Shown here: positions 7,977-64,000 of the stretch, in pieces
Layout: each line of letters begins with the position of its first letter
How positions within the stretch are numbered: position 1 is the stretch's first letter
Notes under the pieces: model-generated
Told to the model about the DNA's origin: nothing
The model's database searches: none
Seen by the model: the letters and a program-made list of their open reading frames with translations, nothing else
Assembly: GCA_902594855.1 (NCBI GenBank)
Contig: CACJNS010000002.1
Span: 18,003-82,002 of the forward strand
From: an uncultured SAR86 cluster bacterium
Lineage (GTDB): Bacteria; Pseudomonadota; Gammaproteobacteria; Magnimaribacterales; AG-339-G14
Direction: 5' to 3'
DNA: 64,000 bases
Translations under genes and position numbers: made by a program

Positions 7977-7980
7977 TTTT

Positions 7981-37224: not shown

Positions 37225-38850
37225 ATGCTGGGTAATATGATGACTGAACCTTTGCTCATTTCAGGAATTCTTGAGCATGCAATTCAAAATAATTCTAAAA
37301 CTGAAATAGTAAGCAAGAGAGTTGAAGGAGACATTCATAGATATTCTATTTTAGATGCTGCAAAAAGATCAAAGCAGCTTGCCAATGCTTTAGTTAACTT
37401 AGGAGTTAAAGAAGGCGATGTTCTCGGCACAATGGCTGTCAATGGCTACCGACATTTTGAACTTTATTTTGGAATCTCTGGGATTGGAGCAGTATTGCAT
37501 ACTTTAAACCCCAGGCTTTTTCCGGAGCAGATAGATTTCATTGTTAATCATGCTGAAGACAAGTATCTTTTCATTGATCTTCCTTTTATACCAATAATTG
37601 AGGCAGTAGCTAAAAATTTAAAAAATGTGAAAGGCTTCATTGTTTTATGTGATAAAGAAAACCTTCCCAAAGATTCCAAGCTAGAAAATTTGATTTGTTA
37701 CGAAGAGTTAATTAAAGATGAAAGTGAAGAGTTTGATTGGCCAACTTTTGACGAAAACACAGCATCTTCTTTGTGTTATACGTCTGGCACAACAGGAAAT
37801 CCAAAAGGAGTTCTTTATTCTCATAGATCTACAATACTTCATGCTTGGTACTCAAGTGCAGGAAATGCAATGAATTTAACTTCAAAAAGTGTGGTCCTCC
37901 CTGTGGTTCCAATGTTTCACGTTAATGCCTGGGGAGTTCCTTATGCAGCTAGTATGCTTGGGTGTAAATTAGTATTTCCTGGTCCTTTCACTGATGGAGA
38001 GTCTATTTACAACTTGATTAACGATGAAGGAGTAAATAATTTGCTTGGTGTTCCCACAGTATGGCTCGGATTACTAAATTATTTAGATGAAAAGGACATT
38101 ACCCTAAAAAATGTAAATTCAGTATTGGTAGGTGGATCTGCCGCTCCAAAGTCGATGATAAAAGACTTCCAAGAAAAACATAACGTTTTTCTTTTGCATG
38201 GGTGGGGAATGACTGAAATGAGTCCTCTGGGGACATTAAATCAAGATACAGCAGAGATGGATTTAATGGAGTTAGATGATCGTTATGAGCTTCAAACCAG
38301 TCAAGGAAGAGCAATATATGGATGCCAAATTAAAATTGTTAATGATGAAGGAAATACTTTACCTAACGATGGGAAAACTTTTGGCAGGTTAATGGTTAAA
38401 GGACCAGCAATAATTGAAAGATATTACAAGTCATCAGAGAGCGCTTTAGAAAATGGTTGGTTTGATACTGGAGATGTATCAACTATTTCGCCAGACGGAT
38501 ACATGAGGATAGTAGATAGGAGTAAGGATGTAATCAAGTCTGGAGGTGAGTGGATAAGTTCTATTGACCTAGAAAATACCGCCCTCGGATGCCCTGGAGT
38601 TTTAGAAGCATGTGTCGTTGGAGTTGCTCACGAAAAATGGGATGAGAGACCTCTACTGTTTGTTGTTAAAAATTCTGACGAATGTACAAAAGAATCTGTT
38701 TTGGAGTATCTTTCTGATAAAGTTGCAAAGTGGTGGTTGCCTGATGATGTGATCTTCATTGATGAGTTACCTCACGGAGCAACCGGAAAACTATTGAAAA
38801 CAGGTTTAAGAGAAGATTATAAAAATCATTTAATTACGAAAGGAGATTGA
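37225..38850 (+). CDS. acyl-CoA ligase of the DmdB (3-methylmercaptopropionate-CoA)/medium-long-chain fatty acid family
   Basis: [51 protein letters not shown] and ATGK motifs. Confidence 0.9.
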
Positions 38851-42529: not shown

Positions 42530-43570
42530 ATGGTACTAAAATATTTTAGAGGATTATACTCCAATGATTTATCAATTGATCTTGGAACGGCAAATACTCT
42601 TGTTTACGTCCGAGATAAAGGAATTGTCCTCAATGAACCAAGTGTAGTTGCCATTAGAAAAACTGAAGGGGCAAGAACAGTAGTAGCAGTTGGAACTGAA
42701 GCAAAAAGGATGCTTGGAAGAGTACCAGGAAACATTGAAGCTATAAGACCACTGAAAGATGGAGTGATAGCAGATTTTCAGGTTACTGAGAAAATGCTTC
42801 AACACTTCATTCAACAAGTTCATGGCGATAACTTTATGCGACCTAGCCCGAGAATTCTCGTGTGCGTACCTTGTCAGTCAACACAAGTGGAGCGAAGAGC
42901 AATCAGAGAGTCTGTGCTTGGAGCTGGGGCAAGAGAAGTAAGATTAATAGAAGAGCCCATGGCGGCTGCAATTGGAGCAGGACTTCCTGTAGAGGAGGCT
43001 TTTGGATCCATGGTAGTTGATATTGGTGGCGGTACCACTGAGGTTGCAATTCTGGCGCTTAATGGAGTGGTTTACTCAAATTCACTAAAAACTGGTGGAG
43101 ACAGGCTTAATGAATCAATAATTTCTTATTTAAGAAGAAAATATGGAATTCTCATTGGTGAATCTACTGCTGAAAGAATAAAAGAAACTATTGGATGTGC
43201 TACCCCTGAAAGTGAGTTACAAGAGATGGAAATCAGAGGGCGTAATTTAGCTGAGGGTGTGCCTAACACTCTTTCTATTTCAAGTTTAGAAGTATATGAA
43301 GCAATGTCTGGCCCTCTATCTTCTATATTGCAAGCAATTAAAAATGGCCTTGAGCAATCTCCGCCTGAGCTGAGTTCCGATATATCAGAAAGAGGAATTG
43401 TTTTGACTGGTGGAGGAGCCTTACTCAGAGACCTTGATGTTATGATCTCAGAACAAACAGGTATACCTGTTATCCCAGCTGATGATCCTCTTACTTGCGT
43501 TGCAAGAGGAGGGGGAGTTGCCCTAGAAATAATGGATAAATACGATATCGATCTTTTATCAACAGATTAA
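42530..43570 (+). CDS. mreB: rod shape-determining protein MreB
   Basis: [26 protein letters not shown] and VLTGGGALL motifs. Confidence 0.99.
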
Positions 43571-43579
43571 TAATCCCTT

Positions 43580-44425
43580 ATGGCCAAGGAGCATAAACAA
43601 GCTGTAATTGCTCAAAAAGCCATTTTTACAACTGGCTCCATGAGGCTTTCCAGAGTGGTTCCATCTATACTCTTTGCCATTTTAATTCTCGCAGCTGACG
43701 TTCGATTTAATGTAGGTGAAAAAGTAAAGATTTATGTTGGCTTTGCAACTGAGCCTATTATTTATATACCGCAGTTTGTAAGAGGAGGATGGATTTCTTT
43801 TTCTGATTATTTCGAGGATAGGGAAATATTACAAAATGAAATACTTCGCTTAGAAAAAGACGTCGATGATCAAAGATTCAATCTTATAAATTATGAAAGG
43901 GTCCTTCAGGAAAATATAGAACTGAAAAAATTACTGGGATACCTAGAAAAGACTAGTAAAAAAGAGTTCATCTATGGCGAAATAGAGGAGATAAATTATG
44001 CTCCTAAACCTTCACTAACTGTGGGGATTGATAGGAGTCAAAGAGCAGATCAAATGGTAGCATTTAATTGGACGGGCTTGATAGGATCGGTAGAATTATC
44101 AGCAGGTTCCAAAGTTGAAATTAAACCAATCTTTGCCGAAGATTCTCAAATTCCTATAAGGAATAGAAGGACAAATTCAAACATGATTTTGGTTGGAACT
44201 GACATGCCTCAGAATTTTTTAATTAAAGGATTAAAGAAAAACGAAGATATTGTTCCAGGCGATAAACTTGTAACATCTGGTCTTGGCAAGAAATATCCCA
44301 AGGGAATTGATGTAGGAATAGTTAATAAAATTTCAGCAACATCAAATAATGAATTTTTAGAAATTGAGGTACTAGGAACTTCAGAATTTAGTTCCGGCGA
44401 TCAAATTTTGTTAACTTTACCGTAA
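43580..44425 (+). CDS. mreC: rod shape-determining protein MreC
   Basis: TM, coiled coil (ENIELKKLL) and GDKLVTSGLGKKYPKG. Confidence 0.93.
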   Translation: MAKEHKQAVIAQKAIFTTGSMRLSRVVPSILFAILILAADVRFNVGEKVKIYVGFATEPIIYIPQFVRGGWISFSDYFEDREILQNEILRLEKDVDDQRFNLINYERVLQENIELKKLLGYLEKTSKKEFIYGEIEEINYAPKPSLTVGIDRSQRADQMVAFNWTGLIGSVELSAGSKVEIKPIFAEDSQIPIRNRRTNSNMILVGTDMPQNFLIKGLKKNEDIVPGDKLVTSGLGKKYPKGIDVGIVNKISATSNNEFLEIEVLGTSEFSSGDQILLTLP

Positions 44426-44937
44426 TGGCTTATTTTTCTTCAAGAAATCCTAATAAGACTTTTTCCACTCAATTAGCAATTGGCATTTCATTAATATTTG
44501 GAGTTTTTTTTCAATCGCTCTTAAATTTCTTTTCATTGGAAATTTATGGATCTTCCATTCCAATTACTTTAATGATTCTAATCTATTGGAATATTGCTTT
44601 ACCAAAAAATATTGGTCTGTCTTGGTCATTTATTTCAGGGATTCTTTTAGATTTGAATCTGGGATATTTTTTAGGATCTCATGTAATTTTATTTTTATTT
44701 ATTTCTTATTTAACTCAGAGATATTTTCATCGTATTAGAGCTATGTTTCAAATTCAACAATCTCTCTTGATAGCAAGTATCGTATTTCTTTATCTTTTAA
44801 GTCTTTATGTTTTTTTTCAGGAATTCAGTTTTTTTGTCATCCTTGCAATTATATTAAATAGTTCGATCTCAGCTTTTGTATGGCCAATTTTATTTGGATT
44901 ATTAAGGATCATCAGAAGAAAATATACCTATGCGTAA
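44425..44937 (+). CDS. mreD: rod shape-determining protein MreD
   Basis: Hydrophobic; LIYWNIALP...GILLD; follows mreC. Confidence 0.88.
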   Translation: MAYFSSRNPNKTFSTQLAIGISLIFGVFFQSLLNFFSLEIYGSSIPITLMILIYWNIALPKNIGLSWSFISGILLDLNLGYFLGSHVILFLFISYLTQRYFHRIRAMFQIQQSLLIASIVFLYLLSLYVFFQEFSFFVILAIILNSSISAFVWPILFGLLRIIRRKYTYA

Positions 44938-49332: not shown

Positions 49333-50598
49333 ATGGATAAATTGGTCGTCGAGGGCGGTTTTCAGCTTAATGGTTCTATCACATCATCCGGAGCAAAAAA
49401 TTCTGCCTTGCCAATCCTAGCTGCATCAATTCTCCTCGATGACACAATAATTATAAAAAATATTCCGCATCTTAATGATGTCACAACTATGCTTGAATTG
49501 CTTGGTTCTATGGGGGTCGATATGACTTTATCTGAAGACATGGAAGTGGAATTAGATCCATCAGGTTTGAATGATGTAGGTGCAAGATATGAATTGGTAA
49601 AAACAATGAGGGCATCCGTGCTAGTTTTGGGGCCTCTTTTAGCAAAAACTGGCTACGCTAAAGTAGCTCTTCCAGGCGGATGTGCAATCGGCAGTCGCCC
49701 AGTCAATCTTCACATTGATATTATGAAGAAAATGGGCTCACAAATTTTTATAAAAGATGGATACATAGAGGCGAAGTCTAAGGGTAGGCTTAAAGGTTGT
49801 GAGTTTCACTTTGATCTTGTAAGCGTGACTGCAACTGAGAATGCTCTTATGGCAGCATGTTTGGCAGAAGGAAAGACAATACTCAAAAACTGCGCAAGGG
49901 AGCCAGAGGTATCTGATCTAGCAAATTGTTTAAATTATTGCGGTGCAAAAATATCTGGAATTGGATCTGATGAACTGGTTATTGAAGGAGTAAAAGAATT
50001 ACACGGAACATCTTTCTCAATAATGCCTGATAGAATCGAAACTGCAACATATTTAGTTGCAACCACTATGACAGGCGGTGAGATTACTATTAAGAACTGT
50101 CAACCAAATTCCTTGGGCGCAGTAATTACTAAATTAGAAGAGGCTGGAGCTAATATAATTTGTAGTGATAATGAAATTAATTTAAAAATGAAAGAAGATT
50201 TACCAAAATCAACTTCTCTTAGCACCGCACCGTTTCCTTCATTTCCAACAGATATGCAAGCACAGTTCATAGCCCTGAATTCCATTTCCAATGGGTCTGC
50301 AACTGTTACTGAAACTGTATTTGAAAATAGGTTTATGCATGTAAATGAACTCATAAGAATGGGAGGAGACATAGAACTGAGGGGAAATACTGCCTTTATA
50401 AAAGGCAAAGGCAGGAAATTAATCGCAGCTCCGGTAATGGCTACAGATTTAAGAGCTTCAGCTAGTCTAGTCTTAGCAGGCCTTGTTGCCAAAGGAGAAA
50501 CTTTAGTTGATAGGATTTATCACATTGATAGAGGATACGAAAGAATCGAGGAAAAACTTAAGCTTTTGGGCGCAAAAATAGAAAGGATTTCAGCATGA
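49333..50598 (+). CDS. murA: UDP-N-acetylglucosamine enolpyruvyl transferase
   Basis: [23 protein letters not shown] (catalytic Cys retained), FPTDMQ and HIDRGY motifs. Confidence 0.99.
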
Positions 50599-51200: not shown

Positions 51201-52482
51201 AAAGATCGAAAGCCATTATTTAGAAGATTATTTAGTAAAAGAAAAAAATCTTCGAAATGAAATCACCGTCACAGATGTTGTAAGAGAAATAATTCAAGAA
51301 GTCAAAGACTATGGAAACGAAGCATTACTTAAATTTATAAATAAACATGAAGGAAAAAAACTTAAATCTATTGATGAAGTTTTATTTAATCAAGATTTTT
51401 TAGAGGATAAGTTCAATTCCTTGAGAGATAAAGATAGAAATATGTTGATCTACATGGCTGAAAGAATAGAAAAATTTCACAATAACGATATTAGATTATC
51501 TGAAGAGCTTGAAGATGACACGGTAGAAAAGTATGGATATTTTTTGAGGCCTATAGATAAAGTAGGCTTGTATGCTCCGGGAGGAAAAGCGCAGTATCCT
51601 TCTTCTGTTCTCATGACGGGTGTTTTAGCTAAGTTAGCAAGAGTTAATGAGATAACCGTTATGTTTCCTGGAAACATTGATGACTTGAATCTTATGTTTG
51701 CGGCTTCTCATTTAATCGGAGCAAAAAGTGTTTTAAATTCTGGTGGGGCGCACACTTTAGCTGCTGTTGCATTCGGGACTGAGTCCATAGGAAGAGTTGA
51801 TAAAGTATTTGGACCAGGAAATAGCTATGTTTCTGAGGCAAAAAGACAACTTTATGGCGAGGTAGGAATTGATTCTCTTAATGGACCATCAGAAGTTGCA
51901 ATTATTGTTGATGAAAACTCTTCAATTGAATATGCAGCGAAGGATTTTTTAGCTCAAGCTGAACATGGTGAGGACTCTAGGTGTTTTCTAATACATCTTC
52001 CAGGCTTTGATTTAAATCAGTTCAATAAAACGTTAAAAAAGAATCTATCAACATCAAAAAGAAAAAAAATTATCAATGAAGCTTTAAAAAATTGTTGCTC
52101 AATTGAAGCCTCATCATTAAAAAATGCTATTTCGTTATCGAATTTAATTATCCCTGAACACTTAGAAATTTTGATTGATGAAATTGATTTAAATCAGATG
52201 CCAGTAATCAAGGCCGGTGCAATTTTTATTGGAGCAGAGGCTTCTGCAGTAATGGGAGATTATTGTGCAGGACCATCACATGTTATTCCTACCGGGGGTC
52301 AAGGAAGATTTAGTTCACAAGTTTCATTGAATGACTTCTTTATAAAAACTTCCTACATTGTTACTTCAAAAAACTCATATAAAAAAAATGGGTACAAAAC
52401 GCTTCTCAGTGAGTCAATAAATATTGCTGAAAGCGAGGGTCTCTGGGAGCACGCTAATGCTCTAAAAGAGAGAGAGAATTAA
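51193..52482 (+). CDS. hisD: histidinol dehydrogenase
   Basis: YAPGGKAQYPSS, GPGNSYV, GPSEV, QAEH, PEHL and GDYCAGPSHV motifs. Start placed at GTG 51193 after AAGGA. Confidence 0.95.
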   Translation: MIKKIESHYLEDYLVKEKNLRNEITVTDVVREIIQEVKDYGNEALLKFINKHEGKKLKSIDEVLFNQDFLEDKFNSLRDKDRNMLIYMAERIEKFHNNDIRLSEELEDDTVEKYGYFLRPIDKVGLYAPGGKAQYPSSVLMTGVLAKLARVNEITVMFPGNIDDLNLMFAASHLIGAKSVLNSGGAHTLAAVAFGTESIGRVDKVFGPGNSYVSEAKRQLYGEVGIDSLNGPSEVAIIVDENSSIEYAAKDFLAQAEHGEDSRCFLIHLPGFDLNQFNKTLKKNLSTSKRKKIINEALKNCCSIEASSLKNAISLSNLIIPEHLEILIDEIDLNQMPVIKAGAIFIGAEASAVMGDYCAGPSHVIPTGGQGRFSSQVSLNDFFIKTSYIVTSKNSYKKNGYKTLLSESINIAESEGLWEHANALKEREN

Positions 52483-53259
52483 CTATCTTTTTGTTTCTTT
52501 AAGGATTTTAGAATAACTCTCTGATACAACATCAATTGGAATGGCAAAATTTAAACCTTGATTCCCACCAGTTGTCGATTCAATGAAATTAATTACGCCT
52601 AATAAATTTCCATTTGAATCAACCAACGCTCCACCAGAATTTCCAGGATTGATAGAAGCATCAGTCTGTATAAACGAACCTTGCTTGTTAATGAACTTCC
52701 TGCCGATTGCGGAAATTATTCCCATGGTGACTGATTGTCCAAGCCCTTGAGGGTTACCAATCGCATAAACAGTTTCACCAATATTTATATCTTCTATTTT
52801 TCTTTTTCTTTGAATCGGTGAAATATTTGCAGTTTTTTCTACTAATTTTAATACTGCTAAATCATTGTCTCTATCTATGCCTATAATTACAACTTCGTGA
52901 TTTGATCCGTCATAAAATTCAGCAAGAAGTTTTTGTTTCAATTTAATTGAATTATTCAAAACATGTAGATTAGTGATTACATGACCTTCATCATCAAAAA
53001 TTACTCCAGATCCATCAGGAAAAAAACCTGTTTTGATGACTTGTTTCCATCTTCTTAGGCCTAATGAAGGAGTTTTTTCTTGCCATTCTCTCCACCGACG
53101 AAGACTCCAAATATTTACAACAGATGATGAAGATTTTTCGAAGTTAAATCCTCTCGAAGAATATTCATTTCTATCTCCTAAACCTACCAAAGTTAGGAAA
53201 CCATACCCTGCAAAGGTTCCCAGTATTATCCATATAGATAGTGTGTAAAAAGAGCGCAT
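52483..53259 (-). CDS. membrane-anchored HtrA/DegS-like serine protease lacking a PDZ domain
   Basis: N-terminal TM, GSGVI, TNLHV (His), DLAVLK (Asp) and NPGNSGG (Ser). Ends shortly after NFAIP; degS/algW position next to rplM. Confidence 0.88.
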   Translation of the reverse strand: MRSFYTLSIWIILGTFAGYGFLTLVGLGDRNEYSSRGFNFEKSSSSVVNIWSLRRWREWQEKTPSLGLRRWKQVIKTGFFPDGSGVIFDDEGHVITNLHVLNNSIKLKQKLLAEFYDGSNHEVVIIGIDRDNDLAVLKLVEKTANISPIQRKRKIEDINIGETVYAIGNPQGLGQSVTMGIISAIGRKFINKQGSFIQTDASINPGNSGGALVDSNGNLLGVINFIESTTGGNQGLNFAIPIDVVSESYSKILKETKR

Positions 53260-53275
53260 TTTTTATTATTCAGAG

Positions 53276-53314
53276 TTGTAAATTATAACCTCTCTAATGT
53301 ATCATTCACGCGCC
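53276..53314 (+). promoter_or_regulatory. promoter for rplM-rpsI with GC-rich discriminator
   Basis: TTGTAA (53276-53281), 18 nt, TATCAT (53300-53305), then TCACGCGCC. Confidence 0.65.
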
Positions 53315-53327
53315 TTTTACGTTAATT

Positions 53328-53756
53328 ATGGATACAAAATCTTACAAACTAGATTCACTTGATAAAGGTTGGTTGTTAGTAGATGCTTCCGACAAAACCT
53401 TAGGTCGTTTAAGCACTAACATTGCAAAGATTTTAATGGGGAAAAATAAACCTGAGTATACCCCTCATAATGACGTTGGAGACTATGTAGTTGTTATAAA
53501 TGCTGAGAAAATAAAAGTAACTGGAAATAAAAACGAGCAAAAAATGTATTACCGACATACCGGTTATCCTGGTGGAATAAAATCTCAAAATTTTAATGAC
53601 CTAATTGCTTCATATCCGGATAGAATAATTACCTCTGCAGTTAAAGGTATGTTGCCTAAAAATAAACTATCAAACTCAGTTATAAAAAAACTTAAAGTCT
53701 ATAAGGGAGAATCTCATCCGCATAGCGCTCAAAATCCTGTAAAACTCGAGATCTAA
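53328..53756 (+). CDS. rplM: 50S ribosomal protein L13
   Basis: [25 protein letters not shown] and GMLPK motifs. Confidence 0.99.
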
Positions 53757-53764
53757 AATAAAAT

Positions 53765-54157
53765 ATGAGCGATAATCAGTATTATTCAACCGGCAGAAGA
53801 AAAACTTCTACAGCCAGGGTTTATCTCAGTTCTGGCGGGGGCTCCATATTAGTTAACGATCTACCATTAGAAGAATATTTCGGTCGAGAAGTAGCTAGAA
53901 TATTGGTCAAACAACCAATTGAGCTAGTTGAGATGGTAGACAAATTCGACTTGAAAATTTATGTTTCTGGTGGTGGATATTTTGGCCAAGCAGGGGCTAT
54001 AAGACATGGACTCTCTAGGGCCCTTGTCAAATATGACGAATCTCTTAAGCCAGTTCTTAAAGAGGCCGGTTTCCTTACAAGAGATTCAAGAAAAGTAGAA
54101 AGGAAAAAGGTAGGTTTAAGAAAAGCTAGAAAAGCTCCTCAGTTCAGCAAAAGATAG
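53765..54157 (+). CDS. rpsI: 30S ribosomal protein S9
   Basis: [14 protein letters not shown] and [11 protein letters not shown]...QFSKR. Confidence 0.99.
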
Positions 54158-54162
54158 ACTTT

Positions 54163-54756
54163 ATGCAGCCAAAATCTCCTCCTAACCCAATAAGACGACA
54201 ATTACTAACCTCAATCACATCCTTGCTTGGGTTTGTGGGTGTTATTTTTGCAGCTATTCCTTTTCTAAGTGCATTCAAGCCTAGTGCTCGAGCTGAAGCT
54301 GCTGGAGCACCTGTAAAAGTTAATATTAGCAAGCTAAGTCCAGGAGAATTAATGACTGTGGAATGGAGAGGTATGCCTGTATTTGTTTACAAAGTCTCAA
54401 GCGAAGCTCAAAACGCTTTATCCGCAGATAAATCTAAATTAGCTGACCCTAATTCAGATCAACAACAACAACCTGAGTACGCACAAAACGATACAAGATC
54501 TAGAAAAAAGGGTATCGCCGTTGTAAAAGGAGTTTGTACTCATTTAGGCTGTGCCCCAAAGTTTTATCCAGAAGCCACCTCACAGGATTTTGATCCTAAT
54601 TGGCAGGGTGGTTTTTTCTGTCCATGCCATGGATCAAAATTTGATCTCGCTGGAAGAGTTTATGCCAATGTACCTGCCCCAACCAACCTTGAAGTCCCAC
54701 CTCATTATTTTGAGACCGATTCTACGTTGGTAATCGGTTCCGATGGAGCAAGTTAA
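54163..54756 (+). CDS. petA: cytochrome bc1 Rieske iron-sulfur subunit
   Basis: Tat-like RRQLL anchor; CTHLGC and CPCHGS boxes. Confidence 0.98.
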
Positions 54757-56009
54757 TGACAACTGATACTAGAACGAAACGTTTCCTTAGTTGGATAGAT
54801 TTTAGATTTCCTTTAACTGAAGTTTTCGAAAGGCATTTATCTAAATATCCTGCACCCACTAACCTCAATATTTGGTATCTCTTTGGATTTCTTCTTATTG
54901 TTGTATTGGCAATGCAAATTGTCACAGGTCTTTGGCTGATGATGAATTATACAAATTCAGCAGAAGAGGCTTTTTCTTCTGTTGAATATATCATGAGAGA
55001 TGTAGAGTATGGATGGCTTATCCGTTACATGCATGCTGCAGGAGCCTCAGCATTTTTTGCACTTATCTATTTGCATATGTTTAGAGGAATGATGTACGGA
55101 TCCTATCAAAAACCTAGAGAGCTGATATGGCTCGGAGGTTGGTTTACCTATCTCATTCTAATGGCTGAAGGTTTCACAGGCTATGTTCTTCCTTGGGGTC
55201 AAATGTCGTTTTGGGCTGCTCAAGTTATCATTTCATTGTTTAGTTCAATACCTGTTGTAGGAGAAGATTTGGCAACATGGATAAGGGGTGATTACTTGGT
55301 ATCAGGAATTACTCTATCAAGGCTATTTGCATTTCATGTAGTCCTTCTTCCAATATTACTAATTGCAATTGTTTTCTTTCATATACTTGCACTTCATGAA
55401 ATTGGTTCAAATAATCCAGATGGAATAGACGTTAAAAAACATCTTGATGAAGACGGAGTTCCATTGGATACAAAACCATTTTTTCCCTACGACATTAGTC
55501 ATGATATTTTTGCTCTCGGCGTATTCCTGATTATATTCTGTTCTGTGGTCTTCTTCTTTCCAACAGGTGGTGGGTACATTATCGAATATGTAAATTATGA
55601 GCCAGCTAATCCCCTTTCTACTCCAGCTCACATCGTTCCCTCATGGTATTACACTCCGTTCTATGCCATGTTGAGAGCTGTGGATTTCCCTTTATTCGGA
55701 CTAACTGCAAAATTTCTTGGGTTTGCCACTATGATGGCTGCAGTTGCTATCTTTGCTGTTCTACCTTGGCTTGATCGAAGCCCTGTGAAATCGATCAAAT
55801 ATAAAGGGATATTAAGTAAGACTTTCTTAGGAATCTTTGTGGTAAGTTTCTTTGCCCTTTGTTATCTAGGTATGGTTCCTCCCACAGAAACAAAAACACT
55901 GCTATCAAAAATTTTCACATTGGGTTATTTCTCATATTTTCTATTGATGCCAATTTATACAAGGATAGAGAAATGCAAACCTGTTCCGGAGAGAGTAGCA
56001 GAAGCATGA
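54756..56009 (+). CDS. petB: cytochrome b
   Basis: [23 protein letters not shown] and FAFH motifs; PSWY variant of PEWY. Confidence 0.98.
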
Positions 56010-56668
56010 AGCTATTAGTTTTTTTGGCTTTTGCTTTTTTTTCAGGGCTATCTATTTCCGCAGGAGATTACAAATGCGGCTCAATTGAATGTTATGAATT
56101 CAGCCCTGATACAAAAGATAAAGAATCCCTTCAAAGAGGTCTTTCAGCATATATGAACTATTGTTATGGATGTCACTCTCTCAAATATTCACGTTACAAA
56201 AGAGTTGCCGAAGATCTCTCAATCCCTCTTGATATTTATGAGCAAAACTTGATTTTTGATGACTCTAAAATAGGTGACTTGATGCATATAAGTCTCAAGG
56301 AATCCAAGGCTATAGAGCTATTAGGAGCCAAACCTCCTGATTTGACTTTAGAAGCAAGATTAAGATCTCCCGAGTGGGTTTATACTTATTTAGATACTTT
56401 TTATGAGGACTCCTCTAGACCTTATGGAGTCAATAATAAAGTTTATGTAAATGTTTCCATGCCACATGTTTTGGAAGACATCCAGTTAGAATTATCTGAA
56501 GAGGAATACGATAGATATATTGCTGATATAACCAATTTTCTTACGTATGTTTCAGATCCATCAGCTGAAACCAGAAAACAGCTTGGTATATATGTTATCC
56601 TTTTTCTTTTAATCTTCACTGCTTTCGCTTATCTGGTTTATAGAGAGTTTAAAAAAGACTTAAAATAA
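56006..56668 (+). CDS. petC: cytochrome c1
   Basis: CYGCH heme motif, PPDL, SMPHVL and C-terminal TM. Start placed at ATG 56006 (ATGA overlap with petB). Confidence 0.96.
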
Positions 56669-56677
56669 ATTTATAAA

Positions 56678-57322
56678 ATGACAAGTTTATTAGGTAAAAG
56701 ATCATCCATGGTCTTATTTCATAATGAAATTGGACATCAAAGCCATAAAGTAAGAATAGTACTATCAGAAAAGGGTATAACCGCCGATCTTGAAGCTTTA
56801 GATCCTGAAAATCTTCCAAAAGAAATTCTAGAAGTTAATCCAAAAGGTTTTCTTCCTTTACTCATAGACAGAGAGTTAGCCTTGTATAAGTCTCAACTAA
56901 TTGTTGAATACTTGGATGAAAGATTTCCTCATCCCCCCTTGCTTCCTGTTTATCCTGTGGCAAGAGCTCAAACAAGATTAATTCTTCATAGAATTGAGGA
57001 AGAGTGGACTTATCATGTTGATATTCTGGAAGATGCATCTGCCACAACAGCAAAAAAGAATTCTTCAAGAAAGGAGCTCAAAAAAAATATAACAAATTCA
57101 ATGATGCTTTTTGATGGCTCTGAATACTTCCGAAGCGAGGAATTTTCCGTATTAGATGCAACAATCATTCCTATTTTGATTAGATTGAAATTCTTAGGCG
57201 TGGATATTCCCAACAATAAATCAACTAAAAATATGCATGAATACGTTGAGAGGATGGTTGAAAATGAGCTTATACAAGAGAGTTTAACGTTACGCGAGAG
57301 AGAATCTTTTTTTACCGATTAA
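56678..57322 (+). CDS. sspA: stringent starvation protein A
   Basis: SHKVRIVLSEKG and YLDERFPHPPLLPVYPVAR motifs. Confidence 0.95.
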   Translation: MTSLLGKRSSMVLFHNEIGHQSHKVRIVLSEKGITADLEALDPENLPKEILEVNPKGFLPLLIDRELALYKSQLIVEYLDERFPHPPLLPVYPVARAQTRLILHRIEEEWTYHVDILEDASATTAKKNSSRKELKKNITNSMMLFDGSEYFRSEEFSVLDATIIPILIRLKFLGVDIPNNKSTKNMHEYVERMVENELIQESLTLRERESFFTD

Positions 57323-57323
57323 G

Positions 57324-58379
57324 TTAACCTTGCTTTACTCCGCTAAGATCTATTCTGAATTTTAAAGGATTAGAATAAAGAAAATTCTCTTTAATTTCAT
57401 ATTTACCAAGTAATCCAGAAAAATTAGAAGATCTGCCTCTAATTTTTGCTCCAAAGAAGAAAATATCAAAGCCAGCCGAAAAAGCAATTTTCTCGTTAAC
57501 ATTCAATTCAGGAATGATTTTTTCAAAGATATTCATTCTGTTTAATAATACTGGATACTCAAGGCCTTCAACTTTATTAAGTTCGCTTAAGCTTAATTCT
57601 GAATTCCAAACATCTAATGATTTAGGGTAAGTTAAAACCTCAGCATCAAAAATTAAATTATAGCGAATAGCAGGAATAATTCTTTTTGTTTCATTCGGTA
57701 AGGCATTGATAAATATTTTATCAATATCCTTTCTTTTTCGAGGAGAGAAGTTAATTTTTTCTTTTAAAACATTCCTCAAGGACCTTGCTCTTTCATTGCT
57801 TAAATTGATTTCAAAGTAATCAGCAATTTTTTGTTCGTAGTCCGAACTGTTCCTTAAAGACAAGGTATTTTCATTATTTTTTGAATTTCGATTTTTTCCA
57901 GTAATGAGAAGAGATTTTTCATCGATCTGGATAAACTCATTTTCACTATTTATATTTATCGATGTGAAGAGAGAATTTCTTGATAATCTTCTTTTGCACT
58001 TTCTGTAGAATTCTGAATTGATATCACTCACTAGTATTAAATTGAAACCCCTGGCTTTAATTATGCTGCAATCACTTTCTTCATTAAAAGCGATAAATGA
58101 GAGTTTCGACTTCATAGAATCTTCATTAGAAAAAAACCCAAACTCTATACCTTTCATGAAAGAAGAAATGAGTTTTTCATCAATCTCTTCCGAGAAGAAA
58201 ATATGATAAGAAGAAGAGAAGTTTTTATTTTTATAGAAATTTTCAACAAAAGACTGCGAAAAGTTACTATCGATGATTTGCTCTTTATCTAATAAAACTT
58301 TATCTTCCATATTCATAGAACAGTGAAATAGGAATACACTGATGATTAAAAAATAAACTTTTTTCAAATAGTCTTTCAT
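57324..58379 (-). CDS. shortened LpoA/LppC-family outer-membrane lipoprotein
   Basis: Lipobox-like LFHC; SPRKRKDIDKIFI...KRIIPAIRY resembles the LpoA C-domain; divergent from rsmI. Confidence 0.65.
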   Translation of the reverse strand: MKDYLKKVYFLIISVFLFHCSMNMEDKVLLDKEQIIDSNFSQSFVENFYKNKNFSSSYHIFFSEEIDEKLISSFMKGIEFGFFSNEDSMKSKLSFIAFNEESDCSIIKARGFNLILVSDINSEFYRKCKRRLSRNSLFTSININSENEFIQIDEKSLLITGKNRNSKNNENTLSLRNSSDYEQKIADYFEINLSNERARSLRNVLKEKINFSPRKRKDIDKIFINALPNETKRIIPAIRYNLIFDAEVLTYPKSLDVWNSELSLSELNKVEGLEYPVLLNRMNIFEKIIPELNVNEKIAFSAGFDIFFFGAKIRGRSSNFSGLLGKYEIKENFLYSNPLKFRIDLSGVKQG

Positions 58380-58382
58380 AAA

Positions 58383-59219
58383 TTGCCTACATTATATTTA
58401 GTCAGTACACCGATAGGAAATAAATTAGATGTTTCTTTAAGGGCTCAAAATGTGCTTTCCTCAGTTGATGTCATTCTATGCGAGGACACAAAAAAATCGG
58501 GTATCTTTTTGAAAGATTTAGGCATAAAAAATAAATTACTCTCTTATCATGATCACTCGAATGTTTCGAAAATTAATTATTTCCTAAAGCTACTAAAAGA
58601 AGGCGCCTCTTTGGCCATAATCTCTGATGCAGGAACACCTTTAATATCTGATCCCGGATACGAATTAGTTGCTAAAGCCATTGATGAGAAAATTAAAGTT
58701 ACCTCAATACCAGGACCTTCTGCTGTTACTTCGGCTTTAATATCGTCAGGTTTACCAACAAGTTCTTTTGTATTTGAAGGTTATGCTCCAAAAAAAAAGG
58801 GTCAGCTAGAAACGTTCTTAAAAAATTTACAATATGAGATGAGAACTATCATTCTGTTTGAATCTCCAAAGAGGATAGAAAGATTGATGCAGATGATTGT
58901 AAAAATTTTAGGTCCTAAAAGGAAAGTATCCTTAGCAAAAGAGCTCACAAAGAAATTTGAGAGAGTCATAACAGATGAGGCTAAAGAAATTCATGAATTA
59001 ATAATAAAAGATGAAACTTTAAAAAAAGGTGAGATGGTTATAGTGATTGAAGGCTCCAAAGAGAAGCAACTTATTTTAGTCGAACATGAGAAAGTCCTCT
59101 TTAAAGAGATCCAAAAATTAAACGGAACCAAGGCAGCATCCAAAATTGTCTCAAAGATTTCCTCAAAAACCTCAAAAGAGATTTACTCAATTTTCAGCGA
59201 ATCAAAGAATGACAAATGA
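58383..59219 (+). CDS. rsmI: 16S rRNA C1402 2'-O-methyltransferase (TTG start)
   Basis: LYLVSTPIGN, CEDT, SDAGTPLISDPG, FESP and KELTKKFE motifs. Confidence 0.97.
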   Translation: MPTLYLVSTPIGNKLDVSLRAQNVLSSVDVILCEDTKKSGIFLKDLGIKNKLLSYHDHSNVSKINYFLKLLKEGASLAIISDAGTPLISDPGYELVAKAIDEKIKVTSIPGPSAVTSALISSGLPTSSFVFEGYAPKKKGQLETFLKNLQYEMRTIILFESPKRIERLMQMIVKILGPKRKVSLAKELTKKFERVITDEAKEIHELIIKDETLKKGEMVIVIEGSKEKQLILVEHEKVLFKEIQKLNGTKAASKIVSKISSKTSKEIYSIFSESKNDK

Positions 59220-59243
59220 GTCCAAATACTTATAATTAGCATC

Positions 59244-59574
59244 GAGCTGACCGGGTAATCGCTGTCAAATAGATAGAGGAAAGTCCGGGCTCCATAGAGA
59301 ATGATGCCAGATAACATCTGGGTGCTGCGAAGTAACGGATAGTGCAACAGAAAATAAACCGCCTTGTGTTAAAAGGTAAGGGTGAAAAGGTGCGGTAAGA
59401 GCGCACCAGACTTTTGGTAACAAAAGTCGTTGGCAAACCCCATCAGGAGCAAGACCAAATAGAGACCTGCTAATGTTTCTCGCATTAGGTCAGGGTAGGT
59501 TGCTAGAGGTTTATGGCAACATAAATCCTAGAGGAATGATTACCAATTACAGAACCCGGCTTATAGGTCAGCTC
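59244..59574 (+). ncRNA. rnpB: RNase P RNA, bacterial type A
   Basis: GAGGAAAGTCCGGGCTCC, AGTGCAACAGAAA, GGTAAGGGTGAAA, GAGCAAGACCAAATAG and ACAGAACCCGGCTTA; P1 is GAGCTGACC/GGTCAGCTC. Confidence 0.98.
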
Positions 59575-59620
59575 ACATAATAAATATCCTTAAAACCCTT
59601 ATATTTTGGGACTAAACCTC

Positions 59621-59649
59621 TTGACAGTGATTATACAAATGTCTAAAGT
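59621..59649 (+). promoter_or_regulatory. dcw (mraZ) promoter
   Basis: TTGACA (59621-59626), 17 nt, TAAAGT (59644-59649). Confidence 0.8.
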
Positions 59650-59690
59650 GTGCTGAAGTGCACATTTGTGTATCTATGTGTGTAAAAGGG
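59648..59690 (+). promoter_or_regulatory. MraZ operator: GTG direct repeats at a 10-bp period
   Basis: GTG at 59648, 59658, 59668 and 59678, and GGG at 59688; overlaps the -10 element and TSS. Confidence 0.8.
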
Positions 59691-59697
59691 GTCTTGT

Positions 59698-60180
59698 TTG
59701 ATGGCTATAGGACTTTATGGATACAGTAGTTTGGCATTGGATTCTAAAGGACGAATTGCAATGCCAGCAAAGTATAAAGAAGCTTTAAAAGAAGTTTCAG
59801 AGGGTTCTTTGGTCATTACTAGGGACCCACAATATCCTTCCTTAAGAATCTATCCAGGCAGTTTATGGAAAACCATATCGAAAGCTTTTGAAAACTTATC
59901 TGGCCTAGATTCAAAAATTAGATCTATTCAGTGGAATTTTCTTGGATATGCAAATTTAATTGATTTTGAAGTCAATGATCGGATGCAAATACTTATTCCT
60001 CAAAGCTTAAGAGATTACGCTCAATTAAAAGTTAAAGAAAAAGTATCTTTGATTGGTATGGGTCAGAAATTTGAAGTATGGAATGAAAAAAATTGGCTTG
60101 CAAAAGAGAAAGGTCAACAAATTCAAGGTGAAAAATTAGATATCGACTTACCTTCTAACGTCCAGGAGATCCCTTTTTAG
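59698..60180 (+). CDS. mraZ: division/cell-wall cluster transcriptional repressor MraZ
   Basis: LDSKGRIAMP, ILIPQSLRDYAQL and FEVW motifs; start TTG 59698 or ATG 59701. Confidence 0.92.
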   Translation: MMAIGLYGYSSLALDSKGRIAMPAKYKEALKEVSEGSLVITRDPQYPSLRIYPGSLWKTISKAFENLSGLDSKIRSIQWNFLGYANLIDFEVNDRMQILIPQSLRDYAQLKVKEKVSLIGMGQKFEVWNEKNWLAKEKGQQIQGEKLDIDLPSNVQEIPF

Positions 60181-60184
60181 CATC

Positions 60185-61039
60185 ATGTTCACTCATCAGC
60201 CAGTAATGATCAACGAAACTATTAAAAATTTAGTTCATGATCCTGCCGGCACTTATTTAGATTGTACTTTTGGCTTAGGGGGACATTCAAAAAAGATTTT
60301 AGAAAACCTTAACGATAATGGCCGATTAATTGCAATAGACAGAGACAAAGAAACTGTCTTGTATTCACAAAAAATAAAAGACAAAAGATTTCATTTTAAA
60401 AATCTAAATTTTTCAAAAATTGAAAGTTTAGATACAAGACTAGACGGTATCTTTTTTGATCTAGGGAATTCTTCTATGCAATTAGATGATCCAGAAAGAG
60501 GATTTAGCTTTCAAAAGGATGGTCCTCTTGATATGAGAATGAACAAAGAAGAGGAAATTACAGCAGAACAATGGATAAATACTGCAACAGAGAAAGAAAT
60601 AAGTGACGTCTTATTTCATTTGGGCGAAGAGCGAAAATCTAGGTTTTATGCCAGGAAAATTGTTGAATCAAGAAAAAAGACCAAGTTTAAAAGCACAGCA
60701 CAGCTTTCTTTATTTATTCAGAAATATAGCAGTTCACAAAAGCGTCATCCAGCAACTAATGTATTCAGAGCAATAAGAATGCATATAAATAATGAAATTG
60801 AAGAGATGATCAATGGATTTAAATCAGCAGCTTGCCTACTCAAGCAAAATGGAAAATTAATCATCATAAGCTTTCATTCCATAGAAGATAGAATAGCTAA
60901 AAACTTTCTCAGATCAGAGGAAGCAAAAAATCTTAATCTTAAAAAGCAAGGAAAGCCTATTAAGCCAACAAATAATGAAATTAAGTCTAATCCGAGATCA
61001 AGGAGCGCAATAATGAGAATTGCGATAAAAAATGTTTAA
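60185..61039 (+). CDS. rsmH: 16S rRNA C1402 N4-methyltransferase
   Basis: HQPVM, DCTFGLGGHS, QLDDPERGFSF, PLDMRM, SFHSIEDR and NPRSRSA motifs. Confidence 0.97.
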   Translation: MFTHQPVMINETIKNLVHDPAGTYLDCTFGLGGHSKKILENLNDNGRLIAIDRDKETVLYSQKIKDKRFHFKNLNFSKIESLDTRLDGIFFDLGNSSMQLDDPERGFSFQKDGPLDMRMNKEEEITAEQWINTATEKEISDVLFHLGEERKSRFYARKIVESRKKTKFKSTAQLSLFIQKYSSSQKRHPATNVFRAIRMHINNEIEEMINGFKSAACLLKQNGKLIIISFHSIEDRIAKNFLRSEEAKNLNLKKQGKPIKPTNNEIKSNPRSRSAIMRIAIKNV

Positions 61040-61310
61040 TCAAATGATATTGATATTTATTTTAGGATCTCTGATTTCTGCTTTTTTTAGTTCCTGCTTA
61101 GTTTTGAACAAGAATGCTAGTTACAAGCAATTAGTCTCAGAAAAGTATCTTTTAAACGACTATAAGTCAAAACTAGATGAGGAATCAGTTTATCTCAAGA
61201 ATAAGATATTAAATCTAACTTCTCACAATTCAGTAAAGGAAAAAACGGTTGACGAATATGGAATGATTTTGCCTGAATCCGTTCTTTTGATTCAAGGAGC
61301 AGAAAAGTGA
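61032..61310 (+). CDS. ftsL: probable cell division protein FtsL
   Basis: Single TM, coiled coil and YGMILP tail; immediately follows rsmH. Confidence 0.7.
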   Translation: MFNQMILIFILGSLISAFFSSCLVLNKNASYKQLVSEKYLLNDYKSKLDEESVYLKNKILNLTSHNSVKEKTVDEYGMILPESVLLIQGAEK

Positions 61311-61858
61311 AATTCTTAACTTTCATTGTAATGATTTTTTCTTCAACCTTTGTTTTATCCGAAGTTTTTGAAGACCCAAAACCTTTGTTTTCAAAACATA
61401 ATCCTAACTTTGTTGAATCATCTAAGGAAGTCAATTCTTGGCCAATAAAAAGATTGCATGTGAAAGAATTTCAACCTCTTGCTTTTTGGGGAAAAGACCA
61501 GATACTGACCCAATCTGGTCGCCTCCTCAAATTTAAAACAAAAGAAAATTTGAAGTTAGTTAATATTGAAGCAAACAGAAATAATATTGACTTTGTCTTA
61601 AGGTATTTTTTTGAGCTAAATCAAATTTTGAAAGGATCTAACTTGGTTCTTAATAGAATTCTAATTGAAGAGTTTGATTTAATGACCTTAGAGGATAATT
61701 CCGGCATAAGGTTTCACATGAATAAATCAAAAATAGAAATTCAATTAGAAAACCTTAAAACATTCCTGAAGAGCGAATACTTTAACAACATAAAAGATAC
61801 CTTTTCATATTTAGATTTAAGGTATCAAAACAAAGGAGCAATTGGGTTAAGGGATTAA
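61307..61858 (+). CDS. ftsQ: truncated FtsQ/DivIB (beta domain, most of POTRA missing; GTG start)
   Basis: WPIKRLHVKEFQPLAFW...SGRL and C-terminal YLDLRYQNKGAIG; directly upstream of ftsA. Confidence 0.8.
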   Translation: MKFLTFIVMIFSSTFVLSEVFEDPKPLFSKHNPNFVESSKEVNSWPIKRLHVKEFQPLAFWGKDQILTQSGRLLKFKTKENLKLVNIEANRNNIDFVLRYFFELNQILKGSNLVLNRILIEEFDLMTLEDNSGIRFHMNKSKIEIQLENLKTFLKSEYFNNIKDTFSYLDLRYQNKGAIGLRD

Positions 61859-61859
61859 T

Positions 61860-63089
61860 ATGGCCAGCAACGGATCAAATAACATCAGAGTAGGTATTGA
61901 CATAGGCACCTCGAAAGTCGTGTGTCTAATCGCTGAATATGTTGATCACGAATTACGAGTTATCGGCTTAGGAAGCCAAACTTCTCAAGGTTTAAAAAAC
62001 GGTGTGATTGTTGATATTGAATCAACTGTATCCGCAATAGAATCCGCGGTAAATGATGCAGAATTGATGTCTGGAAAACAAGTTACATCAGCTTTTGTAG
62101 GTATAAGTGGAGGTCATATAAATGGTTTAAATTCTGAAGGTGTTGTAGGTATTAAAGATAAAAAAGTCAAAGTTAGTGATGTTGATAGAGTCATCACTGC
62201 CGCACAAGCATATGCTATTCCAGATGACTCTCAATTGCTTCATGTTCTGCCAAGAGACTACATTATTGATCAACAAAATGGCATTAAAGAACCTCTTGGA
62301 ATGGCTGGCGTCAGACTGGAGACCAAAGTTCATTTAGTCACCTGTAACAGGAACTCTGCTCAAAACATATCCTCTTGTATGAAAGCTTGTGGTATTACTG
62401 TTGAAGGATTTGTTTTGGAGCAACTAGCGTCAAGTTACTCCGTCCTATCAGAAGATGAAAAAGAGCTGGGAACGTGTTTAATTGACATGGGCGGTGGAAC
62501 TTCAGACGTTGCAGTTTTTCAAAATGGAGCGATAAGTCATACAGCTAATATTCCAACTTCAGGCGATCATATTACTAAAGACATTGCTAGAGCGCTTCAA
62601 ACTCCAAGTATGCAAGCAGAAGAACTTAAGAAGAAGTATGGCTGTGCTTCAAGCTCGATAATTCATGAGAATGAAACAATTGAGGTTCCAGGTATGGCAG
62701 GAAGAAAAAATAAAATTTTCTCAAGAATGGCCCTAGCCAGTGTAATAGAGCAAAGGTATTTGGATATTTTTGGCTTAATAAAACAAAAACTTAACTTATC
62801 TTCTTTAGAAAATAATATTCCCGCTGGGATTGTAATCACAGGTGGAACATCCAGAATGGAAGGAGTAGCTCAATTAGCAGAGGAAGTTTTTAATGCTCCT
62901 GTTCGTATTGGTTCGCCATCAGGATTGATAGGATTGAGCGATATTTTAAGGAATCCAATATATGCAACTGCTGTAGGGTTGGTTTTATATAGCCAGAAAT
63001 CACAAGAAGAAGACCATATGAACTATCTGTTCATGAAAGATAAGAACATTTTTAACAAAGCTTTTAGATGGATCCAAAACAATTTCTAA
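61860..63089 (+). CDS. ftsA: cell division protein FtsA
   Basis: GIDIGTSKV, IDMGGGTSD and VITGGTSRMEG motifs, C-terminal amphipathic helix. Confidence 0.98.
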   Translation: MASNGSNNIRVGIDIGTSKVVCLIAEYVDHELRVIGLGSQTSQGLKNGVIVDIESTVSAIESAVNDAELMSGKQVTSAFVGISGGHINGLNSEGVVGIKDKKVKVSDVDRVITAAQAYAIPDDSQLLHVLPRDYIIDQQNGIKEPLGMAGVRLETKVHLVTCNRNSAQNISSCMKACGITVEGFVLEQLASSYSVLSEDEKELGTCLIDMGGGTSDVAVFQNGAISHTANIPTSGDHITKDIARALQTPSMQAEELKKKYGCASSSIIHENETIEVPGMAGRKNKIFSRMALASVIEQRYLDIFGLIKQKLNLSSLENNIPAGIVITGGTSRMEGVAQLAEEVFNAPVRIGSPSGLIGLSDILRNPIYATAVGLVLYSQKSQEEDHMNYLFMKDKNIFNKAFRWIQNNF

Positions 63090-63107
63090 TTTAAATAAGG
63101 AGGGACT

Positions 63108-64000
63108 ATGAACTGGACCGTTGTAGAAAATGAAACTAAATCATCTGCTCTTATAAGAGTAGTTGGAGTAGGTGGAGCTGGAGGAAACGCAGTGAACCAT
63201 ATGGTTGAAAGCGGTATCGAAGGCGTGCAAATGATTTGTGCTAATACAGATGAGCAAGCGCTTGATACCAACTTAGCAGAATTAAAAATTACTCTTGGGA
63301 CTGGTATTTCGAATGGTCTTGGAGCAGGAGGGAAACCTGAGGTTGGAAGAGATGCTGCTCTTGATGATCTTGAAAGAATTAAAACCTTGCTTGAGGGTTC
63401 AGATATGGTTTTTGTTGCAGCAGGAATGGGTGGCGGTACTGGAACTGGTGCAGCCCCAATTGTTGCTAGAGCTGCTAAAGAAATAGGTGCTTTGACAGTT
63501 GCAGTAGTCACCAAGCCATTAGAGCTTGAAATGAGAGATCAAATTGCAGATGCTGGTTTAAAAGAACTTACTGATGAAGTTGATTCACTAATCGCAATCC
63601 CTAACCAAAAATTATTGGAAGTTCTTGGAAGAGAACATAGTCTTCTTGATGCCTTCAAGCAAGCAAACGATGTTTTACTTGGAGCTGTTAGAGGTATATC
63701 AGATATCATCACACAAACCGGGCTCGTAAATGTTGATTTTCAAGATGTTAAAACAGTAATGTCAGAAAAAGGAACGGCTATGATGGGAACGGGAATTGCA
63801 AATGGGCCAAGCAGGGCAAAAGAGGCAGCCTCCGCAGCTGTAGGAAGTCCACTATTAGAAGATATTAATCTAGAAAACGCAAAAGGAGTTCTTGTTAATA
63901 TCACAGCTGGGCCAGATATGAAAACGGGTGAAATTGAGGAAGTTCTCGCCTTGGTAAGAGAATTTGCTGCTCAAGATGCAACAATCATACACGGTGTGGC
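63108..64000 (+). CDS. ftsZ: cell division protein FtsZ (runs off the window end)
   Basis: Manual translation from ATG 63108: VGVGGAGGNAVNHM, GMGGGTGTGAAP and NVDFQDV; AGGAGG Shine-Dalgarno. Confidence 0.98.
   Translation, partial: MNWTVVENETKSSALIRVVGVGGAGGNAVNHMVESGIEGVQMICANTDEQALDTNLAELKITLGTGISNGLGAGGKPEVGRDAALDDLERIKTLLEGSDMVFVAAGMGGGTGTGAAPIVARAAKEIGALTVAVVTKPLELEMRDQIADAGLKELTDEVDSLIAIPNQKLLEVLGREHSLLDAFKQANDVLLGAVRGISDIITQTGLVNVDFQDVKTVMSEKGTAMMGTGIANGPSRAKEAASAAVGSPLLEDINLENAKGVLVNITAGPDMKTGEIEEVLALVREFAAQDATIIHGV

Follow-up and report, generated by a model that had tools for sequence, protein, structure and literature searches.

The division and cell wall cluster of SAR86 bacteria: probably complete, with two gene blocks exchanged

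The dcw cluster, for division and cell wall, has a gene order that is rated as one of the most stable in Bacteria (PMC8871954). The canonical cluster of Escherichia coli runs mraZ-rsmH-ftsL-ftsI-murE-murF-mraY-murD-ftsW-murG-murC-ddlB-ftsQ-ftsA-ftsZ, and the Mollicutes have a minimal dcw operon, mraZ-mraW-ftsA-ftsZ, with a four-box GTG operator in M. genitalium (PMC12957436). Which of these does the cluster of the SAR86 bacteria resemble? We consider here a stretch of 64,000 nucleotides (nt) of DNA from an uncultured SAR86 cluster bacterium (assembly GCA_902594855.1, contig CACJNS010000002.1, positions 18,003 to 82,002 of the forward strand), called the window below. Its last segment carries mraZ, rsmH, ftsL, ftsQ, ftsA and most of ftsZ, with ftsL joined directly to ftsQ. 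An earlier reading, made from the letters of the window and here called the sequence-only reading, took this for a collapsed cluster from which ten peptidoglycan genes are absent. We propose, at a probability of roughly 0.9, that the window instead contains the opening third of a dcw operon that is complete but permuted and characteristic of SAR86 (Magnimaribacterales). The permuted order would be mraZ-rsmH-ftsL-[ftsQ-ftsA-ftsZ]-[ftsI-murE-murF-mraY-murD-ftsW-murG-murC-ddl]; compared with the canonical mraZ-rsmH-ftsL-[ftsI...ddl]-[ftsQ-ftsA-ftsZ], two adjacent blocks would have been exchanged.

The cluster in the window and past its end

Six reading frames lie between 59698 and the window end. 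Scored against NCBIfam and Pfam, they are as follows.

59698/59701..60180, + strand: mraZ (TIGR00242, E 5e-24; Pfam MraZ, 57.6 bits)
60185..61039, + strand: rsmH (mraW), 16S rRNA m4C1402 methyltransferase (TIGR00006, 297.5 bits, above cut-off)
61032..61310, + strand: ftsL, 92 amino acids (place after rsmH and weak similarity)
61307..61858, + strand: ftsQ, short form, 183 amino acids (Pfam FtsQ_DivIB_C, 24.0 bits, cut-off 21)
61860..63089, + strand: ftsA, 409 amino acids, 1 nt after ftsQ (TIGR01174, 459 bits)
63108..64000, + strand: ftsZ, 297 of 375 codons up to the window end (TIGR00065, 356 bits)

By these scores the identities of mraZ, rsmH, ftsA and ftsZ are unambiguous. For mraZ, the ATG at 59701, which stands behind AAGGGG, is more likely to be the start than 59698; the protein is called with 159 amino acids in contigs of the same species. 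The ftsL frame overlaps rsmH by 8 nt. At the ftsL/ftsQ junction, read directly in the sequence, the GTG that starts ftsQ (61307-61309) shares two bases with the TGA that ends ftsL (61308-61310), giving GTGA at 61307-61310, and because the two genes overlap there is no space for pseudogene debris between them. Thus far the sequence-only reading was accurate: the order from mraZ to ftsZ, and the seamless ftsL-ftsQ overlap free of debris, are as it described them. The GC content of about 34% falls within the range given for SAR86/Magnimaribacterales (PMC11582366), exact copies of the window's FtsA occur on 808 contigs, and its 90% FtsA cluster includes MDA9729582.1, labelled by NCBI as FtsA [SAR86 cluster bacterium]. 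The 64-kb window contains no rRNA gene.

What follows ftsZ? A single contig, L114 (NCBI GCA_902570595.1), encodes the exact FtsQ of the window. It is 99.72% identical to window positions 51307-64000, collinear to the last base, and continues past it: the ftsZ stop lies 235 nt beyond the window end, and after 6 nt, at 242 nt beyond the window end, ftsI begins with a TTG start and is followed by murE-murF-mraY-murD-ftsW. Ten contigs encoding the window's exact FtsA (L001-L010, 0.9-1.3 Mb, from nine nanopore metagenome assemblies and NCBI GCA_902581455.1) belong to the same species, being 97.0-97.6% identical to and collinear with window positions 51860-64000. In ten of ten, ftsZ is followed by ftsI, murE, murF, mraY, murD, ftsW, murG and the start of murC, with NCBIfam support for FtsZ, an FtsI-type penicillin-binding protein, MurE, MurF, MraY, MurD, FtsW and MurG. 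The cluster is carried further by L107 and L110, contigs of this species from short-read metagenomes: they contain murC (485 bits) and ddl (292 bits), with rpsF-rpsR-rplI-dnaB-alr downstream of ddl. All genes of the block are intact and co-directional, and the junctions from mraZ to ddl in the window species measure at most 18 nt and are mostly overlaps. Across the near-identical strain and the same-species contigs, ftsL, ftsI, murE, murF, mraY, murD, ftsW, murG, murC, ddl, ftsQ, ftsA and ftsZ are therefore found contiguous and co-directional.

The ten genes seem absent because the window stops inside ftsZ, which is an edge effect. They are indeed missing from the ftsL-ftsQ interval. At the level of the genome the statement fails, as nine of them (murB had been named in brackets) lie intact after ftsZ, and the full block in L114, L001-L010, L107 and L110 contradicts the notion of a collapsed cluster. 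Might the septal peptidoglycan pathway nonetheless be reduced, in the manner of the Mollicutes, by loss of ftsI, ftsW, mraY, murC-G and ddl? Only the look of the window, with its end inside ftsZ, speaks for such a loss, and we regard it as next to impossible. Directly after ftsZ, the near-identical strain (99.7%), the contigs of the same species and all related lineages carry the nine genes intact, so that the genomic absence of ftsI, ftsW, mraY, murC-G and ddl that marks the Mollicutes type is not found. Furthermore, murA, glmM, dapC, dapD and mreBCD lie inside the window, and alr is nearby. Judged by gene content, peptidoglycan and septal synthesis are not reduced, contrary to the reduced or altered septal pathway that had been offered as one of two explanations.

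The other explanation was that the block had moved as a unit and escaped MraZ control, which would place the mur and fts genes at a distant site, expressed independently of MraZ. The block is certainly intact elsewhere, and the sequence-only reading had itself remarked that finding it so would reduce the matter to a mere translocation. That has happened in its mildest form: the block starts 6 nt downstream of the ftsZ stop, on the same strand, and still belongs to the same co-directional, packed cluster behind MraZ-type boxes. A distant site seems to us very improbable. As for an assembly artefact, a chimeric join or collapsed contig at the ftsL-ftsQ junction, the junction does look unusual and several of the nanopore contigs have frameshift errors elsewhere. 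However, the same 4-nt overlap is found in GCA_902581455.1, in GCA_902570595.1 and in nine same-species nanopore contigs, and the ftsL-ftsQ join is also kept in contigs of other lineages from Tara, SPAdes and JGI. Since the same junction recurs in assemblies of independent origin (nanopore, Illumina, Tara, JGI, NCBI), misassembly is excluded, and an artefact is scarcely conceivable.

Some details of these contigs deserve mention. In the pilon-polished nanopore contigs L001-L003, L006-L008, L010, L093 and L099, genes such as ftsZ, ftsI and murE are split by frameshifts; these are assembly errors and not pseudogenes, and in L004, L005 and L009 every gene is whole. At 20104-20293 of L004, and likewise in L005 and L009, the stretch ahead of the GGTGGH motif of murG contains neither ATG nor GTG nor TTG. 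An ATT at 20119 of L004, 4 nt behind GGAGG and overlapping the ftsW stop, is probably a rare start codon for murG; gene callers shorten the protein to 259 amino acids. In L107 (12441-17209) and L091 (12445-17147), ddl is followed by rpsF-rpsR-rplI-dnaB and alr, with the D-alanine enzymes encoded by ddl and alr less than 3 kb apart, and lpxC does not adjoin the cluster in either contig.

Gene order and promoter region across SAR86

Is this order a peculiarity of one species? All the SAR86-like neighbourhoods reached through FtsA or MurG relatives read mraZ-rsmH-ftsL-(ftsQ)-ftsA-ftsZ-ftsI-murE-..., with ddl last where it is visible. The permuted order is present in lineages whose FtsA is 67-68% (L091, L092, L094, L101-L103), 63-65% (L100, L104, L105) and 59-61% (L095-L099) identical to that of the window. 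By a tblastn tally, ftsA is the next conserved gene after rsmH in 23/23 informative SAR86-like loci, and ftsI follows ftsZ in 27 of 27. The ftsL/ftsQ overlap varies from 4 to 11 nt across lineages (4 nt in L095-L098; 11 nt in L100, L104 and L105) and the ftsZ-ftsI spacing from 1 to 12 nt. A homologue search with the window FtsQ returned only near-identical sequences (at least 84%) and gave no clade breadth.

As controls we used 80 distant gammaproteobacterial loci from a genome-collection scan with MraY (54-61% identity), none of them of the SAR86 clade and with FtsA 38-54% identical to that of the window. After rsmH comes ftsI in 70 of the 71 informative loci, with ...murC-(ddl)-ftsA-ftsZ downstream, and the E. 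coli locus shows the canonical order. That order places ftsL by ftsI, ddl by ftsQ, and ftsZ last, followed in Gammaproteobacteria by lpxC. The SAR86 cluster does not have it; the actual neighbours are ftsL and ftsQ, ftsZ and ftsI, and ddl followed by rpsF. We found no description of the SAR86 dcw order in the searchable literature, which left out many subscription papers, the largest dcw survey among them, and the main text of the SAR86 isolate paper (PMC11582366) makes no mention of fts, dcw or peptidoglycan.

The upstream boundary of the cluster in the window is laid out as follows.

59209-59236: promoter-like site of rnpB, ATGACA-16-TATAAT, near-consensus
59243..59579, + strand: rnpB, RNase P RNA (Rfam RF00010, 324 bits, full length)
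59621..59649, + strand: Pmra, candidate cluster promoter (-35 TTGACA at 59621-59626, 17-nt spacer, -10 TAAAGT at 59644-59649)
59648..59682, + strand: putative MraZ operator of four GTG(T/C)(G/A) boxes starting at 59648, 59658, 59668 and 59678, an exact 10-bp period

The rnpB gene sits between rsmI and the dcw promoter and forms the upstream limit of the cluster; the promoter begins only about 40 nt past the rnpB 3' end. Pmra is the only good sigma-70 match (10/12) on the + strand between rnpB and mraZ, and the putative operator overlaps its -10 and transcription start. Known MraZ sites consist of phased GTG(G/T) boxes, and the boxes of the window match the published sites (PMC12957436). The Pmra layout is also found upstream of mraZ in lineages L095 and L097, where three AAAGTGT(G/A) boxes with a 10-bp period occupy the same place, and L094 has three similar GTGT boxes with looser spacing. 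Hence mraZ and rsmH stand at the 5' end of the cluster behind a candidate promoter with phased, putative MraZ boxes. Inside the cluster, promoter-like and terminator-like matches do not exceed the expectation from shuffled sequence and are uninformative either way; the ftsZ/ftsI junction has neither a terminator-like site nor a gap large enough for a promoter.

FtsL, FtsQ and other genes of the window

The identities of the two small genes at the junction require more argument. The predicted 92-residue product of 61032-61310 has an N-terminal hydrophobic segment followed by a coiled-coil-like region, as fits FtsL, a small bitopic protein with membrane anchor and coiled coil, and its match to Pfam FtsL (PF04999) scores 13.4 bits, below the 22.9 cut-off. 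A profile of SAR86 FtsL sequences has as its two top PDB matches the FtsL proteins of P. aeruginosa (E 2e-4) and E. coli (E 0.02), hhalign against bona fide FtsL gives E 2e-4 at a probability of 46%, and for the L095 orthologue a Pfam FtsL match had been precomputed. On position together with this weak but consistent similarity, the frame is probably ftsL.

In the window FtsQ, the FtsQ_DivIB_C match spans residues 59-172. A SAR86 FtsQ profile matches the FtsQ chains 8bh1, 2vh1, 6h9n and 8hhf (P. aeruginosa, E. coli) with E from 1e-14 to 6e-12 and aligns to residues 97-256 of E. coli FtsQ. An AlphaFold2 model of the 183-residue protein, built from a shallow alignment, has a mean predicted local distance difference test score of 33.9 and is unusable, and the identity of FtsQ therefore rests on the Pfam and PDB profile matches. 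The protein consists of a hydrophobic N-terminus and a C-terminal beta domain, without a cytoplasmic tail, and only about 38 residues separate the two. No POTRA_1 match was found in it with Pfam at E up to 1; in a control, the FtsQ of locus L032 scores 58.5 bits for POTRA_1 in addition to FtsQ_DivIB_C. Alignment shows the window FtsQ to be deleted relative to the E. coli protein and to longer SAR86 forms. In FtsQ/DivIB, it is the conserved DLRY end of the C-terminal beta domain that pairs with FtsB. Domain and end are both recognizable by sequence in the window protein, and the end is retained wherever FtsQ is present, with D170, R172 and Y173 invariant in the alignment.

The lengths of FtsQ form a series, from 276 amino acids in E. 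coli to 226-227 in L095-L098, 183 in the window and 155 in L100, L104 and L105. Four ftsQ loci outside the window species are:

L095 9325-10008
L097 9324-10004
L100 9534-10001
L104 9226-9693

The long forms of L095 (9325-9375) and L097 (9324-9380) start MKNLLLVSLILLSFGC and MMKNKLLFIFFTILLLGC, respectively, and are lipobox-like (LSFGC, LLLGC), which suggests a lipoprotein anchor in place of the usual bitopic anchor. The window FtsQ has no Cys at the lipobox position.

In a third lineage, four independent Tara scaffolds (L094, L101-L103), ftsQ is absent between ftsL and ftsA, a statement about that cluster only. The FtsA of this lineage has 406 amino acids and is 67-68% identical to that of the window. 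Between rsmH and ftsA, and overlapping ftsA, is a small open reading frame of 71-74 codons:

L094 3218-3442
L101 4700-4915
L102 4548-4772
L103 548-772

Is this a remnant of FtsQ? We rejected that idea: the product aligns with SAR86 FtsL over the N-terminal two thirds of that protein, and against the FtsL of L100 it shows 41% identity (E 3e-8), as an FtsL minus its C-terminal 20 or so residues. By size and domain content, FtsQ is evidently eroding stepwise across the SAR86 lineages, with only the C-terminal beta domain and its DLRY end kept. The FtsQ marker PF03799 is scored absent, without comment, in most SAR86 genomes (Table S1, PMC11582366). The graded erosion bears on the question of which FtsQLB parts a cell can do without, and if FtsQ is truly gone from the third lineage, we would have a free-living gammaproteobacterium that divides without it. 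A pipeline for annotation, or a set of completeness markers, that counts on finding FtsQ (PF03799) or the canonical gene neighbours will get SAR86 genomes wrong.

Other genes of the window touch on the wall or adjoin genes that do.

7089-9144: dapD, dapC
18112-19461: glmM
36145-37209: GH84-type beta-N-acetylglucosaminidase (Pfam NAGidase, 128 bits), in the slot after prfA-prmC-moeB
37225-38850: DmdB-like 3-(methylthio)propionyl-CoA ligase (803 bits, just under the 822-bit cut-off)
42530-44937: mreB, mreC, mreD
49333-50598: murA, catalytic Cys present
57324-58379, - strand: LpoA/LppC-like gene, 351 amino acids (Pfam, 28.5 bits, at threshold)

The sequence-only reading had listed murA with its Cys intact, glmM, dapCD, mreBCD and an LpoA-like gene as present, and had noted that murI is missing after moeB; all of this holds, the murI slot being occupied by the GH84-type gene. 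The LpoA/LppC-like match covers 115 residues of a 563-position Pfam model, and the protein has 384-389 amino acids in other SAR86 lineages; as in Pseudomonas, the gene is divergently paired with rsmI. The DmdB-like gene hints at use of breakdown products of dimethylsulfoniopropionate.

A proposed block exchange and its comparison with known systems

What steps might account for the SAR86 order? A single block swap would do so, dating from the common ancestor of the sampled SAR86 lineages or from earlier. The 15 genes would still be transcribed as one unit from the MraZ-controlled promoter, and if, as we infer, one MraZ-regulated transcript covers all 15 genes, then nothing has escaped MraZ. 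The swap would shorten the distance of ftsQAZ from the promoter from about 13 kb to about 1.6 kb. Model bacteria transcribe much of their ftsZ from promoters that lie within ddlB-ftsA. A streamlined genome has almost no intergenic space for internal promoters, and there the swap would tilt output towards FtsA and FtsZ over the low-copy Mur proteins, FtsI and FtsW; a genome without spacer DNA may use operon position instead of internal promoters.

Was the swap then adaptive? One version would have it as an adaptive rewiring of dcw, in which ftsQAZ is brought near the single MraZ promoter and polarity sets a high-FtsZ/low-Mur stoichiometry, an independent and similar case being a Thiotrichales genome discussed below, with a parallel minimisation of the divisome by loss of the FtsQ POTRA and, in the third lineage, of ftsQ and the C-terminal end of FtsL. 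Taken as a whole, we think this unlikely. Somewhat short of even odds, in our estimate, is the alternative that the swap was selectively neutral, a chance rearrangement within the operon, fixed by drift in the SAR86 ancestor, with co-orientation and co-transcription kept. The promoter-proximal position of ftsQAZ would then have no regulatory meaning, with relative protein levels depending on translation or on promoters inside the coding sequences. The swap leaves gene content, orientation and packing as they were, and there is only one fixation in SAR86 plus one metagenome-assembled genome (MAG). It is harder to see, on the neutral account, why the order should be frozen across SAR86 lineages down to 59% identity in FtsA and 37-46% in MurG, in a cluster whose order is so stable elsewhere in Bacteria (PMC8871954), and why the sole other exception in 71 gammaproteobacterial loci should also shift ftsZ to the promoter-proximal end. 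In that exception, the control locus L032, ftsZ alone moved behind rsmH, which favours a non-random direction. Overall, the balance between an adaptive and a neutral swap is roughly even, with a lean toward neutral or unknown.

Several points weigh against the proposal of a complete, permuted operon or against parts of it. The sequence of the window's own genome is in view up to base 64000 of the window, and the continuation is taken from a 99.7%-identical strain and from relatives. The sample covers some SAR86 lineages only, without the cultured strain HIMB1674 (Magnimaribacteraceae). Neither murB nor murI was located, including in a search of the supplement, though both lie outside the cluster in E. 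coli as well (E. coli locus; PMC8871954). Co-transcription, MraZ binding and a benefit in expression are inferences, and consensus scans say nothing on promoters embedded in coding sequence and so cannot exclude them. Finally, the adaptive view draws on one clade and one convergent MAG, and a neutral rearrangement would fit equally well.

If the proposal of a permuted operon is right, what is new is a clade-wide order variant of a complete, known cluster, and not a wall-less lineage. As it was written, the sequence-only reading would leave one of the most abundant bacteria of the surface ocean unable to make septal peptidoglycan. This is wrong, and the record needs correcting. A dcw permutation fixed across an order of very abundant marine bacteria, in a cluster rated so stable (PMC8871954), is a natural experiment: does dcw gene order matter for expression or assembly?

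Three arrangements bear comparison with that of SAR86. In the MAG Thiotrichales bacterium 2016_B01_C_3 (L032 256-17902, JAEMQD010000063.1) the order is mraZ-rsmH-ftsZ-ftsL-ftsI...ddl-ftsQ-ftsA-lpxC. As in SAR86, a complete dcw cluster has here been permuted, independently, so that ftsZ comes next to the mraZ promoter. Unlike in SAR86, only ftsZ has moved, to within 2 nt of rsmH, while ftsQ (with POTRA) and ftsA remain after ddl, and lpxC is at the 3' end. The usual ftsZ slot before lpxC is empty in this single MAG contig.

The Mollicutes type resembles the SAR86 cluster in having division genes directly after mraZ-rsmH and four GTG boxes, and it was this resemblance that misled the first reading. 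The Mollicutes, however, lack the peptidoglycan genes, whereas SAR86 has all of them intact after ftsZ.

With the dcw cluster of E. coli, the SAR86 cluster shares the same 15 genes on one strand, the tight packing, a 5' end of mraZ-rsmH-ftsL preceded by phased GTG boxes, and an undivided ftsQ-ftsA-ftsZ unit. It differs in that ftsQAZ lies between ftsL and ftsI, in that ddl is last and followed by rpsF rather than ftsQ, and in having ftsI after ftsZ where E. coli has lpxC. In addition, the window species has an FtsQ without POTRA and gaps of no more than 18 nt, against 53-60 nt ahead of murC and ftsZ in E. coli. Measured against the definition of the canonical cluster, the SAR86 cluster has its parts and departs from it in gene order only.

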